Shown piece after piece: positions 59,554 through 64,000 of a DNA stretch of 64,000 nucleotides (positions are counted from its first letter, which is position 1; each line of letters opens with the position of its first letter). Position numbers and translations under genes: made by a program. Source of the DNA: an uncultured Bacteroidota bacterium (lineage in GTDB: Bacteria; Bacteroidota; Bacteroidia; JABEUT01); NCBI GenBank assembly GCA_903901055.1, contig CAIUPO010000103.1, forward strand, positions 1,705 to 65,704, given 5' to 3'. The notes under the pieces were generated by a model, which was given only the letters and a program-made list of their open reading frames with translations, made no database searches and had not been told where the DNA came from.

Positions 59554-60125
59554 AATGATTTTTTCAGCAATTCAAGATTTTCAATCTTTTTTTGCCCCCT
59601 GCTCCTTATTGCAGCATCGGTATAATAATTATGCGTTTCTAAAAATTTTACCTGGAGTTTATTCCAGTTAGTATCATCGGCAAGCCTGCCGAGTGAAAGG
59701 AGTTCTTGCCTTAGATCTTCAGCCCGGGGAAAGAAGCGGTCAGTTCCAAGATAATCCAGATCAGCATCTACAATTATTTTTTGAAGATGATCTTCAGGAG
59801 ACCAGGGCAGTCGGGTTGCCATAATTAATTTACAAACAACCTCTATTTGCCGGGGTGTGAATCCGTAATCAGGGAGGTATTTCATTACTATTTCGCACGA
59901 CATCATCTCATGCTCGGTATCGCTGAAAGTCCAACCGGAATCGTGGTAAAGGGCTGCTATTTGCAAAAGTGTAAGCTCCTCTTCTGTAATATTCTCTTCT
60001 TTACCCAAACGCGTGGCTGCTTCATATACTTCTTTAGTATGCGCCAGGTTGTGGTAAGTCAGTATATCTGGTAATTCATTTTCCAGTTTATGTAAAATGA
60101 ATTGGGATGCTCCTTCAAAATTCAT
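59550..60125 (-). CDS. HD-domain metal-dependent phosphohydrolase
   Basis: YHNLAHT, ALYHDSG, HE, DADLDYLG. Confidence 0.9.
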   Translation of the reverse strand: MNFEGASQFILHKLENELPDILTYHNLAHTKEVYEAATRLGKEENITEEELTLLQIAALYHDSGWTFSDTEHEMMSCEIVMKYLPDYGFTPRQIEVVCKLIMATRLPWSPEDHLQKIIVDADLDYLGTDRFFPRAEDLRQELLSLGRLADDTNWNKLQVKFLETHNYYTDAAIRSRGQKKIENLELLKKSL

Positions 60126-60158
60126 CGCGCAAAAATATATTTATTTTTATCATATAAG

Positions 60159-62258
60159 TTACGATTGAATCATATTTTCAACAAAGTACATGTCAATTTC
60201 TCCTTTATTCTTAGCTTGGACCTTACCCCGGTAGGTGCATTTGAACGTATCTTTAATGTATTCATAAGTGGCTCCGGATATATTTACTTTCCCCGCTTCC
60301 CCGCTAGATTCCATGCGGGAAGCAATATTTACTGTATCGCCCCAAATATCGTAAGCAAACTTTTTTATACCTACAATTCCTGCCACCACATGGCCGGTAT
60401 GCAAGCCTATTCGTATATCAAAAAAAGGTTTTTGGTCTTTTTGTCTTCTTGCCTTCTCTTCATCCATAAATGCAGCAATATCCATTGCTGCTCTCACTGT
60501 ATCTATTGGGTTGGTTGAATTAGCTACCGGCAATCCACCTGCTGCCATATAGCCATCTCCAATAGTTTTTATTTTTTCGACCCCGTATTTTGCCATAATC
60601 CGGTCGAATGCACTGTAGCAATAATGCATTTCGCTAACCAAATCTTCTGCACTCATCGTCTCGCTTGCCCGGGTAAAATTTTTAAAGTCAGTAAATAATA
60701 CGGTTACCATATCGAAACTTCGTGTTTTTGCCCCACCGGTTCTTTTTAGCTCTTCGGCCGTTTCAGCAGGTAGAATGTTTAAAAGTAAATCATCACTGTG
60801 TTTCTTTTCCCGTCGGATTTTATTTCGCTGAACAAATACAAATATCAGGAAGAAAACTACAATAGCAAAGCCACCTAAGGTATAATTCCGCAAACGCCTT
60901 TGATTGCGTATTTCATTCTCCTTAACGGCATCTTTTTTTACCTGGTCTGCTTTTATTGAATCTTGCCGTTTATCCGAAAGAAATGTCATTTCCATTTGAG
61001 TTAAAACTGAACTATGAGATAAAAGATAATTCGAGTCTTTCCAATGTTCAAACTTTACATGATAATCGTAGGCTGCAGCAAAATTCTTGAGTAAAGCATT
61101 TATTTCAGCCAAATTACTGTAAGCATCCTGAATGTCTTCCTTGCTATTCACATGCTGAGCCAGCAATAGCCCCTTATTTTCATAATTCAAAGCCTCCTGC
61201 AAACTGCCAGTTTGTTTATCAACTTCACCAAGCGATATGCATGTCTTCGCAATACCGGCAGTGTCTTTTAGTTCTTCAAATAAATTTAAGGCCTTTAGGT
61301 AATTAGTTGTTGCATCCGAAAGTTTATCCTGTTTTTTATAAACATCTCCAATACTTGCATTTTCCAATGCACTGCCACTTTTATCGCCAATTGCTTCCAT
61401 TTTTTTTAATGCTGTTTCGTGGAATATTAGCGCTTCGGAATAGTTGCCTTGTTTAAAATAAGTATTTGCAATATTCACATAGGCATACCGGTTTTGAAGT
61501 TTATCACTACCTGGTTCTTCGCTCATCTCAAGGGCCTTTCGATAATACAACATAGCATCGGAATAGATTTCCTGAACATAATAGATTTCGCCAATGCAAT
61601 TATATAACCATGGCATGCCATGTGCATCTTTAATTTCCTCTTTAATTTTTAATGATTTGAAATAGTATTTTAATGCTTCCGGGTAATCCTTCATAATTTC
61701 ATATCCGGCACCTAACCGACTATAGATATCACTGATGTCTTTTTTATCCCCTGCTTCTTCATAAAATGATAATGCTTTTTTCAGCACAACCATACGTTTA
61801 TCATTATTCCCTTGTTGCCTATATACCGATCCCATATTGCAATAGACATCTGCAACGCCAATTTTATCACCTATTTCTTGCCTTATGTCTGCTGCCTTTT
61901 GATAATATTCAAGTGCATTTTGATAATTATTCCTATGCAAACAAACGGTTCCCATTTCTTTACATCCATTTGCTATTCCTCTTTTATAGCCAATTTTTTC
62001 TGATAGTGTAAGGCACTTTTGGGCATATCGAATAGCTGAGTCATAATTAAAATCACGATAAGCTATTTCAATAGAATAATAGATATCGGCTTCTGCTGAA
62101 TCTGCCAATACAGTTGTTTTACTTCCTGATGTTTTTTTGTGGATCTCTAGTTTTTGTAATTTGTTTTCGAGAGAATCAACGAGACGGCGGTCCTGTGCCT
62201 TCAGAATGAAAAATGAAGAATGAAAAATGAAGAATAAAAAGACGAGAATTTTTCTCAA
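60159..62258 (-). CDS. Membrane-bound class III adenylate cyclase with periplasmic TPR sensor
   Basis: Signal peptide, multiple TPRs, one TM, LLLNILP, VLFTDFKNFT, KIKTIGDGY, YDIWGDTVNIASRMES (Lys/Asp = ATP specificity). Confidence 0.93.
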   Translation of the reverse strand: MRKILVFLFFIFHSSFFILKAQDRRLVDSLENKLQKLEIHKKTSGSKTTVLADSAEADIYYSIEIAYRDFNYDSAIRYAQKCLTLSEKIGYKRGIANGCKEMGTVCLHRNNYQNALEYYQKAADIRQEIGDKIGVADVYCNMGSVYRQQGNNDKRMVVLKKALSFYEEAGDKKDISDIYSRLGAGYEIMKDYPEALKYYFKSLKIKEEIKDAHGMPWLYNCIGEIYYVQEIYSDAMLYYRKALEMSEEPGSDKLQNRYAYVNIANTYFKQGNYSEALIFHETALKKMEAIGDKSGSALENASIGDVYKKQDKLSDATTNYLKALNLFEELKDTAGIAKTCISLGEVDKQTGSLQEALNYENKGLLLAQHVNSKEDIQDAYSNLAEINALLKNFAAAYDYHVKFEHWKDSNYLLSHSSVLTQMEMTFLSDKRQDSIKADQVKKDAVKENEIRNQRRLRNYTLGGFAIVVFFLIFVFVQRNKIRREKKHSDDLLLNILPAETAEELKRTGGAKTRSFDMVTVLFTDFKNFTRASETMSAEDLVSEMHYCYSAFDRIMAKYGVEKIKTIGDGYMAAGGLPVANSTNPIDTVRAAMDIAAFMDEEKARRQKDQKPFFDIRIGLHTGHVVAGIVGIKKFAYDIWGDTVNIASRMESSGEAGKVNISGATYEYIKDTFKCTYRGKVQAKNKGEIDMYFVENMIQS

Positions 62259-62382
62259 TGGGGTAAGCTAAATACAGGTTGTAAAAGTAAAAATAAGTAA
62301 TTATTTCAAATAATTGCCTTGATCAGTGAGTGCATGCATGTTAAAAAAATGTTGCCTTTCTTCAATCAGAGACTAATTTTTA

Positions 62383-62390
62383 TATATTTG
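62383..62390 (+). promoter_or_regulatory. Bacteroidota -7 promoter box for the micro-ORF
   Basis: TATATTTG (TAnnTTTG) 25 bp upstream of ATG 62416; no other plus-strand gene nearby. Confidence 0.7.
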
Positions 62391-62415
62391 TCCTAAATTA
62401 ATAAACTAAATTACA

Positions 62416-62472
62416 ATGAAAAAGTTTAAAAACTCTGCCCCTCCTCCTCTGGAACCACCGAAGAGAGGCTAA
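62416..62472 (+). CDS. 18-aa proline-rich micropeptide MKKFKNSAPPPLEPPKRG
   Basis: Not in the ORF track; A-rich leader AATAAACTAAATTACA-ATG, upstream -7 box and downstream terminator. Confidence 0.7.
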   Translation: MKKFKNSAPPPLEPPKRG

Positions 62473-62495
62473 CTGAATGTTAGGTCTTAAAGATT

Positions 62496-62528
62496 AAGCA
62501 GTGTCTCTCGTTAAGACATTGCTTTTTT
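62496..62528 (+). terminator. Intrinsic terminator after the micropeptide
   Basis: AAGCAGTGTCT-CTCGTTA-AGACATTGCTT plus T-run; abuts the oxygenase stop codon. Confidence 0.8.
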
Positions 62529-63159
62529 ATTTTTTCCCCTTTGCAGGCTTATTTTTCAGGATGGACTCCTTCAGTATCCATCCATTTATTGTAAACCTAC
62601 CATCCTTAAATTTTTTAGATGGACATGAAACCTTCAGCACTTCATGTGTATGTGTAGGGTTGAAAAAAACGATTGTATTATTAACCGGCTTAATTAAAAG
62701 GTCGCCCCCTTCAGGAAAAAGTAATTCACCCCCACTGAATTTTTTAACCGGTGAGTTAAAATAGTAAACAAATGTTATCATTCTTTCCTCGGTGGCTGGG
62801 GTGCTTTTATCTTTATGCAACTTAAAAAGTTCCCCATCATTATGGCTTGTAAGTTGATAATCGATATCATGGATTTTAAAGGGCTCTATTTTTAAGCATT
62901 GGCATATTTCGTTGAAATGTTTTTTGATGAATTTTTCAAGATGGGGCACAAAATCAATAAAATCCTTCTTGTACAATACTTGCGACTTTCTCCAGTCATG
63001 ATAAATTTCATAAGAAGAATAATTCGCGCCACCGGTAAATTTAAACAGTTTTTCTTTAGAAAGAATGTTCCTTAATAAAGCCTTGTTTGTTTCATTTTTT
63101 AGTACATCAGCATATTGAATAACAACTTTAATGTCTTTATTCTTTTTCCACATTCCCAT
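62527..63159 (-). CDS. 2OG-Fe(II) oxygenase, prolyl-4-hydroxylase-like
   Basis: QLTSHNDG..FKLHKD (HxD), FVYYF, FSGGEL, HEV (distal His), RFTINGW (2OG Arg); TATTTTTG box at 63175-63182 (minus) favours ATG 63159 over TTG 63177. Confidence 0.88.
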   Translation of the reverse strand: MGMWKKNKDIKVVIQYADVLKNETNKALLRNILSKEKLFKFTGGANYSSYEIYHDWRKSQVLYKKDFIDFVPHLEKFIKKHFNEICQCLKIEPFKIHDIDYQLTSHNDGELFKLHKDKSTPATEERMITFVYYFNSPVKKFSGGELLFPEGGDLLIKPVNNTIVFFNPTHTHEVLKVSCPSKKFKDGRFTINGWILKESILKNKPAKGKK

Positions 63160-63203
63160 ACTTACTTTTTTTGACAAAAATAATAAAAATGACTACCCGA
63201 GTT

Positions 63204-64000
63204 TTAAGCCGATATATTCGATGAAGTAGCTTTAAGAACATTTTTTAGAACAGCTTTTTCATTTTCCCAGCATAATATTTTTTTAGCATTTGCTTCATTC
63301 TCTTTCCATTCAAGCCACCTTGTTTTATCAGCGAGCATGTAATTTATTTTACTAGCTATTTCCACCGGGTTGTGAGATTCAATACAAATACCAACATTAT
63401 ATTCTTCAACTATTCTCTTCACTTCAACCAATGGTGAGGCTAAAACGGGTACTTCCGCCTGAATGTAATCAAAGAGTTTATTGGGCAAGCTGTAGCGGTA
63501 ATTAATATTGGTGTCTTTATCAATACTAAGGCCAATATCCGCGTGAATGGTGTATTGCATTAATTCTTCAAAAGGGAGTTTAGGAAGAAATTTTACTTTA
63601 TCATTCAGCTTTAATTCAGTTGATAATTGCTTCAGGCTATTTATTGCATCACCTCCTCCAATAATTAAAAGCAAGCAATTATCGAGGAGTGCCATAGCCT
63701 GTATTGCTTCTTCAACTCCCCGGTTTATATTAATCCCGGCCCCCTGTAAAAGTATAATGTTTTTATCTTCCGAAATTCCTATTGATTCCCGTGAAACCTT
63801 GATAGGTATTGCTTTTTGAAGTGGCAAATTTCTCATTACTTTAACATCGGTGCCAAACTCATCCTTATATAATTTGGCTATCGAATCATTTACGGTGAAC
63901 ATATATTTTAGCTTAGGAATAATCATTTTTTCAAGCCTTTTCCAAAGGTTTCTTTTGAAATGGTTTTCCATTAATTCAGGTACACCTGTGAAGTATTCAT
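63204..64000 (-). CDS. GT4-family glycosyltransferase (5' end outside the window)
   Basis: EYFTGVPEL, RGVEE, SLPNKLFDYIQAEVPV. Confidence 0.9.
   Translation of the reverse strand, partial: EYFTGVPELMENHFKRNLWKRLEKMIIPKLKYMFTVNDSIAKLYKDEFGTDVKVMRNLPLQKAIPIKVSRESIGISEDKNIILLQGAGININRGVEEAIQAMALLDNCLLLIIGGGDAINSLKQLSTELKLNDKVKFLPKLPFEELMQYTIHADIGLSIDKDTNINYRYSLPNKLFDYIQAEVPVLASPLVEVKRIVEEYNVGICIESHNPVEIASKINYMLADKTRWLEWKENEANAKKILCWENEKAVLKNVLKATSSNISA

Follow-up and report, generated by a model that had tools for sequence, protein, structure and literature searches.

The window analysed here is a 64,000-nucleotide (nt) stretch of contig CAIUPO010000103.1, which belongs to an uncultured, low-GC (38.8%), Bacteroidia-like metagenome-assembled genome from lake water. 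Near the end of the window, a gene for a prolyl 4-hydroxylase (P4H)-type, 2-oxoglutarate (2OG)- and Fe(II)-dependent oxygenase converges on a short open reading frame (sORF) that encodes a candidate proline-rich micropeptide. The enzyme type, the small unit facing it, and the possibility that the micropeptide is the substrate of the enzyme are considered below on the basis of the following features.

62416-62472, + strand: sORF of 18 codons plus stop, MKKFKNSAPPPLEPPKRG, a candidate proline-rich micropeptide (ATG at 62416, TAA at 62470-62472).
62527-63153, - strand: PHD/P4H-type 2OG-Fe(II) oxygenase, 208 residues from the ATG at 63153 or 216 residues from a TTG at 63177.
62383-62390, + strand: TATATTTG box, a Bacteroidota-type -7 promoter motif (TAnnTTTG), 25 nt ahead of the sORF ATG.
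62496-62524 (stem-loop) and 62525-62535 (T-run), + strand: hairpin and T-run, terminator-like on this strand as judged by a scan and a fold.
63175-63182, - strand: TATTTTTG box, the promoter-like site of the oxygenase itself, as read in the sequence.
60159-62258, - strand: adenylate/guanylate cyclase with TPR repeats, 699 residues (Pfam Guanylate_cyc, 1.7e-51, and TPR families).
60150-63203, no strand assigned: strain-specific insertion of about 3 kb, made up of the oxygenase, a 268-nt spacer holding the sORF, and the cyclase, between the stop codon of a family 4 glycosyltransferase (GT4) gene (63204) and the promoter of an HD-domain gene.

An earlier sequence-only reading of this DNA had described the box, the sORF, an 11-pair hairpin, an oxygenase stop codon within the T-run, an oxygenase with its own box, and the TPR cyclase, and all of these features are indeed present. 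The sORF peptide contains five prolines in seven residues (PPPLEPP), with seven residues preceding the proline cluster. An in-frame TAA lies three codons upstream, and therefore ATG 62416 is the sole possible start. The stop codon of the sORF is 54 nt from that of the oxygenase, the two genes being convergent (tail-to-tail), and its start codon is 158 nt from that of the cyclase on the opposite strand (head-to-head). The sORF is the sole proline-rich coding feature near the oxygenase.

The assignment of the enzyme to the prolyl-hydroxylase type, made previously from motifs, is well founded, as judged from Pfam, the sequence motifs, and the predicted fold. The protein matches PF13640 over residues 108 to 201 with 55.2 bits (cutoff, 27), and H113, D115, H170, R186, G191, and W192 are invariant in an alignment of 24 sequences, so that both the HxD...H iron triad and the basic residue binding 2OG are present. 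An AlphaFold2 model built from a 24-homolog alignment had a predicted local distance difference test score (pLDDT) of 88.1 and a predicted template modeling (TM) score (pTM) of 0.85. In a Foldseek comparison with the PDB, the model came closest to Dictyostelium PhyA (6t8m), Pseudomonas PPHD (4iw3/4j25, with and without EF-Tu), and many PHD2 structures, with E values of about 1e-12 and TM scores of 0.62 to 0.69. Among the top matches listed, all are PhyA, PPHD, PHD2, or Trichoplax PHD except PolD (9blq, rank 43). Sequence-only matches in the PDB are weak (E values of 0.06 and 0.2) and point to two proteins that are also among the Foldseek matches. Homologs of the oxygenase are named "SM-20-related" or "Tpa1-like proline 4-hydroxylase" in their sources. 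The window enzyme itself is a single-domain protein lacking a recognition domain such as the RiPP recognition element (RRE) of ribosomally synthesized and posttranslationally modified peptide (RiPP) systems, and prolyl hydroxylation is its predicted activity. The closest homologs (P0002 to P0005) share 68 to 83% identity with it (P0002 to P0004, 74 to 83%) and lie on contigs of 1.5 to 3.2 kb, and viral contigs hold homologs of at most 39% identity.

Only one PF13640 gene was found in the genome (a 3.8-Mb, 94%-complete assembly), and proline-rich sORFs are rare in it as well. Of 2,549 intergenic ATG-initiated sORFs of 10 to 60 codons, 3 have at least five prolines in seven residues and 8 have at least four. 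The chance that one of these three falls in the 268-nt spacer beside the sole PF13640 gene is about 0.003. This value is an arithmetic estimate from spacer length that ignores look-elsewhere effects, and it was discounted roughly 10-fold; the proximity of a proline-rich sORF to the only P4H-type gene is still a notable coincidence after this discount.

The neighborhoods of at least 160 homologs of the oxygenase (34 to 69% identity; among the matches listed, 80 each from species genomes and metagenomes) were compared with the window. Under a looser criterion (at least five prolines in 12 residues, ORFs of 12 to 100 residues, within 700 nt, low-GC loci), proline-rich ORFs were 3.6 times denser near the oxygenase than far from it in the clade of the window enzyme (6 in 26.5 kb versus 4 in 63.3 kb). 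Outside the clade, no enrichment was found (12 in 100.8 kb near versus 63 in 399.6 kb far). Of the six clade hits recovered in this way, just two, L099 and L110, are convincing. Both are metagenome contigs, and their oxygenases belong to the sister group that also contains the window enzyme. L099 (289-420) carries a stand-alone ORF of 43 codons, with a short N terminus followed by repeats (four PEPTPR and one PEPTPK), which is codirectional with the oxygenase and separated from the oxygenase ATG by 16 nt; a TAnnTTTG-type box, TATCTTTG, lies about 20 nt ahead of the ATG of the micro-ORF. The fragment downstream of this oxygenase could not be recognized as a Cupin_8 N terminus. The L110 micro-ORF (24-182) is closed and stand-alone, with 52 codons from a TTG or 37 from an ATG and with PQPTPPP repeats, and a gap of 39 nt separates its end from the codirectional oxygenase ORF. 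A related arrangement occurs at the closest homolog from a genome, that of G011 (L009; L002:1-1265), where a Cupin_8/JmjC gene and a 171-residue ORF precede the oxygenase. The 171-residue ORF lies 226 nt upstream of the oxygenase and has a proline-rich C-terminal tail (PPLPPPPPPS). Its N-terminal part has a 28%-identical homolog in the window genome (C22:6516-6914), which is devoid of the proline tail. In L108, a Cupin_8 gene is located directly upstream of the oxygenase.

A high-GC metagenome contig outside the clade (L144:3438-3686) encodes an 82-residue ORF with a PPPGPPPPPPGPPPPP tail that lies 52 nt downstream of the oxygenase and converges on it. The layout, tail-to-tail as in the window, may be due to chance at 59% GC.

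Proline-rich neighbors of protein size are more frequent in the same clade. Directly upstream of the oxygenase and on the same strand, 22 of the 160 homolog loci encode a protein of 180 to 300 residues with EPPDGG repeats, which has conserved N- and C-terminal parts, and a central run of EPPDGG(P/T)PEPG(V/T)PP (EPPDGGPPEPGVPP) repeats. In 11 of the 22 loci, a PF11397 "GlcNAc" (N-acetylglucosamine) transferase gene is located one gene further upstream (Pfam-checked in two loci, E values of about 1e-56), and 15 of the 22 loci encode the oxygenase as a PF13640-Cupin_8/JmjC fusion of 486 to 567 residues (Pfam-checked in two). The EPPDGG protein has at least 163 relatives, of which every named one is annotated as hypothetical and none has a Pfam domain. 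The cluster of PF11397, EPPDGG, and P4H-JmjC genes looks like a bacterial system for hydroxyproline glycosylation. Examples of the transferase/EPPDGG/P4H cluster are found at L011:2362-4564, L028:2226-5527, L013:1608-5584, and L015:837-5560 and at 18 further loci, and EPPDGG clusters occur in Acidobacteriota, Nitrospirota, Chitinophagaceae, Pseudomonadota, and Actinomycetota.

A tree of 69 rows, built by a quick method with Shimodaira-Hasegawa-like approximate likelihood ratio test (SH-aLRT) supports, placed the 22 EPPDGG loci in one group (SH-aLRT, 94). The window enzyme fell into a sister group of 22 rows (SH-aLRT, 88), and the two groups together form a clade of 45 rows (SH-aLRT, 99), 22 of which have an EPPDGG protein upstream. 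Eleven Mucilaginibacter-type loci form one clade within the sister group. In L021 (3106-7121), the oxygenase gene is situated between Transglut_core3 and Asn_synthase genes, with a 63-residue candidate precursor, and in L105 (189-1144), a PqqD gene adjoins the oxygenase. Transglut_core3, Asn_synthase, and PqqD are signature parts of lasso-peptide clusters (B2, C, and B1, respectively), and the occurrence of the oxygenase family within such clusters indicates that the family acts as a modifier of ribosomal peptides. One further Mucilaginibacter-type locus (L043, 2105-5794) contains HPr-kinase-like, sulfotransferase-like, and GT2 genes.

Members of the clade presumably hydroxylate proline-rich polypeptides that are encoded beside them. 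Because the clade thus seems to act on neighbor-encoded and often proline-rich polypeptides, in agreement with the fold, the prior for a neighbor-encoded substrate is also raised for the window enzyme. In the reading that we propose, the oxygenase would be a peptidyl-prolyl hydroxylase of the PHD/EGLN-PhyA-PPHD type that arrived, with its own promoter, on the strain-specific insertion of about 3 kb. A TAnnTTTG promoter of its own would drive transcription of the sORF into an RNA of about 130 to 140 nt that ends at the hairpin, and translation of this RNA would yield the 18-residue peptide. The neighboring enzyme would then hydroxylate one or more prolines of APPPLEPP with O2, 2OG, and Fe(II). 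The sequence features, the family and fold of the enzyme, and the proline-rich neighbors in its clade are shown, whereas the transcript, its translation, the modification of the peptide by the enzyme, and any further role of the sORF unit are inferred. That the window pair consists of an enzyme and its substrate is plausible but unproven, and that the translated micropeptide serves as the substrate is put forward tentatively, at somewhat less than an even chance.

The case for a separate transcription unit is better, and a genuine transcript from the + strand is fairly probable. Spacer statistics were computed for this genome (G000) from crude gene calls (greedy ORFs of at least 90 residues). 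Across the spacers of the whole genome, the density of TAnnTTTG is 4-fold higher facing gene starts than facing 3' ends (2.97 versus 0.73 per kb). The promoter profile of the genome consists of aaatTT..TAnnTTTG followed by an A-rich stretch, and when scored in bits against this profile, the flanks of the sORF box reach 6.66 bits. This value corresponds to the 91st percentile of held-out gene-facing boxes and to the 97.6th percentile among 170 orphan boxes. About 105 nt downstream of the promoter-like box, a same-strand terminator follows, whose hairpin has 11 pairs (4 G-C and one G-T) and a loop of 7 nt and is followed by TTTTATTTTT. In 836 spacers between tandem genes, 45 hairpin-plus-T-run terminators were found on the gene strand and 17 on the opposite strand. 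A strong terminator (stem of at least 10 pairs) solely on the opposite strand was found in 6 of the 836, the hairpin of the sORF spacer included, and this rarity argues for a genuine end of a + strand RNA. The oxygenase stop codon (62527-62529) lies inside the T-run, and on the - strand, the hairpin begins 2 nt past the stop. The small unit of promoter-like box and same-strand hairpin with T-run, as delineated earlier, is confirmed in its parts, with the caveat that its T-run is coding sequence of the oxygenase.

Canonical hairpin-plus-T-run structures follow about 5% of the tandem gene pairs in this genome (45 of 836), and long hairpins lacking a T-run are three to four times commoner. Termination in G000 may take place mostly without U-tracts. 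Two further TATATTTG boxes are located past the end of the window on the same contig (L169:2965-3090, contig C103), one of them with the TATATTTGTCC extension of the sORF box. They sit in a divergent spacer between a MoxR gene and the gene for a 1,156-residue PKD/CHU_C (type IX secretion) protein.

Many of the observations that weigh against the substrate reading also speak for a fortuitous sORF, an alternative that we consider rather unlikely. In this alternative, the box and the 18 codons arose by chance, the hairpin ends or stabilizes the oxygenase mRNA, the enzyme has a protein substrate encoded elsewhere, as PPHD does in EF-Tu, and the rest of the spacer is the AT-rich promoter region of the cyclase. 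TAnnTTTG boxes facing 3' ends occur at chance frequency (170 observed versus about 150 in shuffled sequences), and they are found in 28 of 199 regions of 200 to 350 nt. A box together with an ATG sORF (10 to 60 codons, starting 10 to 50 nt past the box) occurs in 26 of 1,192 regions. Hairpins of at least 10 pairs occur 138 times in the 836 tandem spacers, and 109 of these lack a T-run. The T-run of the sORF unit is the reverse complement of the oxygenase stop and the last two Lys codons, and homologs of the oxygenase, close ones included, likewise end in Lys-rich tails in the alignment. The terminator evidence therefore counts less, and the hairpin may belong simply to the oxygenase gene. At the level of the proteins, many members of the clade have no proline-rich neighbor: in the sister group of 22, such a neighbor was found at 3 loci, and 11 loci are located in lasso-peptide clusters instead. 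A strict scan (ORFs of at most 70 residues, at least five prolines in seven, within 600 bp) recovered 1 of the 160 loci (L110), with a density of 0.0056 per kb near the oxygenase and 0.0146 per kb far from it, that is, with no enrichment. The recurrence of proline-rich sORFs beside homologs, which the sequence-only reading had proposed as a check, failed in the strict scan but is seen at the level of the clade in L099, L110, the G011 tail, and the 22 EPPDGG loci.

The lack of conservation of the sORF also counts on this side. A degenerate PPPLEPPK pattern representing the peptide core was found in none of the 17 other genomes of the genus, the window being alone among 18, which were all the genomes available for the order. 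A comparison of 62260-62560 with 40 relatives at the blastn level gave only short AT-rich matches of 33 to 60 nt, none of them significant, and the spacer showed no similarity to the 160 homolog loci by tblastx and blastn (best E values of 0.05 to 0.65). The G011 locus contains no comparable sORF; an integrase fragment lies downstream of its oxygenase. Since the insertion of oxygenase, spacer, and cyclase is strain specific, these negative results on conservation have little power. The peptide is very short and has a single proline cluster with no repeats, which distinguishes it from the L099, L110, and EPPDGG proteins. It is also convergent with and downstream of the oxygenase; the tail-to-tail pairing described earlier holds for the window, but the proline-rich genes of the relatives are all upstream and codirectional. 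Among the window neighbors (GT4, MoxR, TPR cyclase, and HD protein), there is no RRE/PqqD, protease, RiPP cyclase, or exporter. In addition, the proline thresholds were picked after the peptide was known, and 64 kb of DNA allows many stories of enzymes and peptides. The window sORF, being unconserved and atypical in orientation, is the weakest example of the pattern.

A fortuitous ORF would, however, require a coincidence of about 0.3% given three proline-rich sORFs and one P4H-type gene, a promoter context within the top 2.4% of orphan boxes, and a strong terminator only on the opposite strand, as in just 6 of 836 tandem spacers, and it does not account for the proline-rich micro-ORFs that recur next to relatives (L099 and L110). 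A more specific form of it, in which the sORF derives from a decayed EPPDGG gene, was ruled out because the sORF shows no similarity to such genes and lies on the wrong strand.

Population data were taken from contigs of four lake-water metagenome DNA runs with the locus, with run X3 having no contig over 62394-62555. The four runs come from a single study, two of them may have been the source of the assembly, and there was no RNA run among those listed for the locus. The sole variant over 61800-63400 is a T-to-C change at 62450 in one contig (depth, 2.9), which replaces Leu12 with Pro (PPPP) and leaves the frame open; such a single change is uninformative.

A genuine promoter and terminator would also suit a structured small RNA (sRNA) of about 130 to 140 nt in which CCUCCUCCUC reads as Pro codons by accident, and we regard this account as unlikely, more so than the fortuitous ORF. 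Its targets could be the divergent cyclase, the convergent oxygenase, or distant genes, and the head-to-head layout with the cyclase, the two starts being 158 nt apart, would fit the first of these. The 139-nt RNA (62397-62535) folds with a z-score of -2.38 (5 of 200 shuffled sequences were as good) into three or four predicted hairpins, and in the minimum-energy fold, the C-rich part of the C/U-rich stretch pairs with GAAGAGAGG. The folding energy, however, comes mostly from the terminator hairpin. A search of Rfam 15 with E values up to 10 returned six matches, all with E values of 2.8 or higher and far below the gathering scores, and the 40 relatives hold no homolog of the spacer, which leaves no covariation to test. 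An sRNA would also leave unexplained the open proline frame, the usual spacing between its ATG and the box, and its adjacency to a P4H gene.

The sORF might instead be translated with a role that is regulatory or otherwise unrelated to the enzyme, for example, as a peptide that stalls ribosomes at its PPP motif in response to EF-P or the proline supply and so sets how much antisense transcription of the oxygenase proceeds past the hairpin. Polyproline stalls ribosomes, and the PPP motif, the hairpin 24 nt later, and the convergent layout agree with such a role. However, no gene follows downstream on the + strand, the predicted fold contains no alternative antiterminator structure, and the sequence is not conserved. 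We hold this to be the most improbable of the alternatives by far.

In four genomes of the same genus (G010, G008, G004, and G002), MoxR, GT4, and HD genes follow each other with nothing between, and a comparison of the junctions showed that the conserved promoter sequence of the HD-domain gene (start at 60125) resumes right past the cyclase stop. The uninterrupted order in these relatives, together with the resumed promoter, indicates that the oxygenase, spacer, and cyclase are a strain-specific insertion. On the oxygenase strand, the GT4 gene and then the MoxR ATPase gene are located upstream. GT4 was considered and rejected as a partner of the oxygenase: the MoxR-GT4-HD order is ancestral in the four relatives, and the oxygenase was inserted after GT4, so that the link between the two is incidental. 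Only one of the 17 other genomes of the genus, G011, contains the oxygenase (68% identity), and there it occupies an unrelated locus. Cupin_8 paralogs of the window genome are located on another contig with no proline-rich sORFs nearby.

The genome encodes at least 11 cyclase paralogs, the window cyclase among them, and within the genus, its most similar relative shares 46% identity with it. The idea that the peptide is a signal for this adjacent protein found no linking evidence, and the ideas of a ribosome-active peptide or of an O2 signal are speculative. In a direct reading of the sequence, as opposed to a tool prediction, a signal-peptide-like N terminus before the TPR part and a membrane segment after it suggest that this part probably faces outward, and the peptide, having no signal sequence, could not then reach the TPR domain. 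In the cyclase gene, a 5'-terminal stretch of about 35 nt (62203-62241, encoding the hydrophobic N terminus) recurs with 2 to 5 mismatches in many other contigs of all four runs, and Logan assemblies break there. The sharing of this stretch probably reflects the many cyclase paralogs.

Comparison with known systems shows where the window pair would stand. PhyA (6t8m), to which the model of the window enzyme is structurally closest, belongs with Gnt1 to the Skp1 system of Dictyostelium and Toxoplasma. Eleven related bacterial loci resemble that system in that they pair a homolog of the oxygenase with PF11397, a Pfam family named after Gnt1, and a proline-rich protein, an analogy that suggests a pathway of hydroxylation followed by glycosylation. 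The window differs in that the genome contains no true homolog of PF11397 (best tblastn E value, 0.96) or of the EPPDGG protein (low-complexity matches only), its enzyme is a single-domain protein without the Cupin_8 fusion and shares about 21% identity with PhyA, and the candidate substrate is a peptide of just 18 residues instead of a folded protein. Pseudomonas PPHD and animal PHD2/EGLN share with the window enzyme the fold, the ligand set, and a single domain of about 200 residues (Foldseek E values of about 1e-12). PPHD acts on EF-Tu and PHD2/EGLN acts on HIF-alpha, in each case on a single target proline in a loop of a substrate encoded elsewhere, and peptides of about 19 residues can serve as PHD substrates in vitro. 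We know of no neighbor-encoded proline-rich substrate for PPHD or PHD2.

The window enzyme is of the same family as the tailoring hydroxylases within Mucilaginibacter-type lasso clusters, but the window contains no RRE/PqqD, protease, cyclase of the lasso type, or exporter, and the peptide has no recognizable leader. The proposal of a RiPP-like precursor and modifier stands for the adjacency of the two genes but not for a leader, recognition element, protease, or exporter, and if the pair is real, it would be leaderless and probably cytoplasmic, with no classical RiPP cluster. Hydroxyproline peptides of plants and animals, such as those of the CLE/PSY type and conotoxins, are small ribosomal peptides whose prolines are hydroxylated by 2OG-dependent P4H enzymes; their precursors carry signal peptides and pass through the secretory pathway for processing, and the enzymes are encoded elsewhere. 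Overall, the earlier interpretation is partly supported.

Literature searches, at the level of titles and abstract openings, gave neither a bacterial P4H paired with a proline-rich micro-ORF nor a cluster of EPPDGG, GlcNAc-transferase, and P4H-JmjC genes, and passages of PMC2938197 mention neither the pair nor the EPPDGG cluster. The enzyme family and RiPP-type tailoring are already known kinds. As a wider view, which we hold to be doubtful at present, the window sORF and the L099 and L110 micro-ORFs may represent a new class of leaderless bacterial hydroxyproline micropeptides (18 to 50 residues) with dedicated PHD-type enzymes encoded adjacently. In the EPPDGG/GlcNAc-transferase/P4H-JmjC clusters, this system would then occur on the scale of whole proteins and with glycosylation, and these clusters might be prokaryotic relatives of the eukaryotic Skp1 hydroxyproline-glycosylation pathway.

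Very few substrates of bacterial PHD-type prolyl hydroxylases are known, EF-Tu among them. A clade with neighbor-encoded substrates would give directly testable pairs of enzyme and substrate, ranging from proline-rich peptides of 18 to 43 residues to repeat proteins accompanied by a Gnt1-type GlcNAc transferase and a JmjC domain. If the reading is true, hydroxyproline peptides would join the bacterial range of modified ribosomal peptides. The pattern in the family is more interesting than the example in the window, which drew attention to it, and this pattern has implications for how the O2-sensing Skp1 pathway of protists arose.

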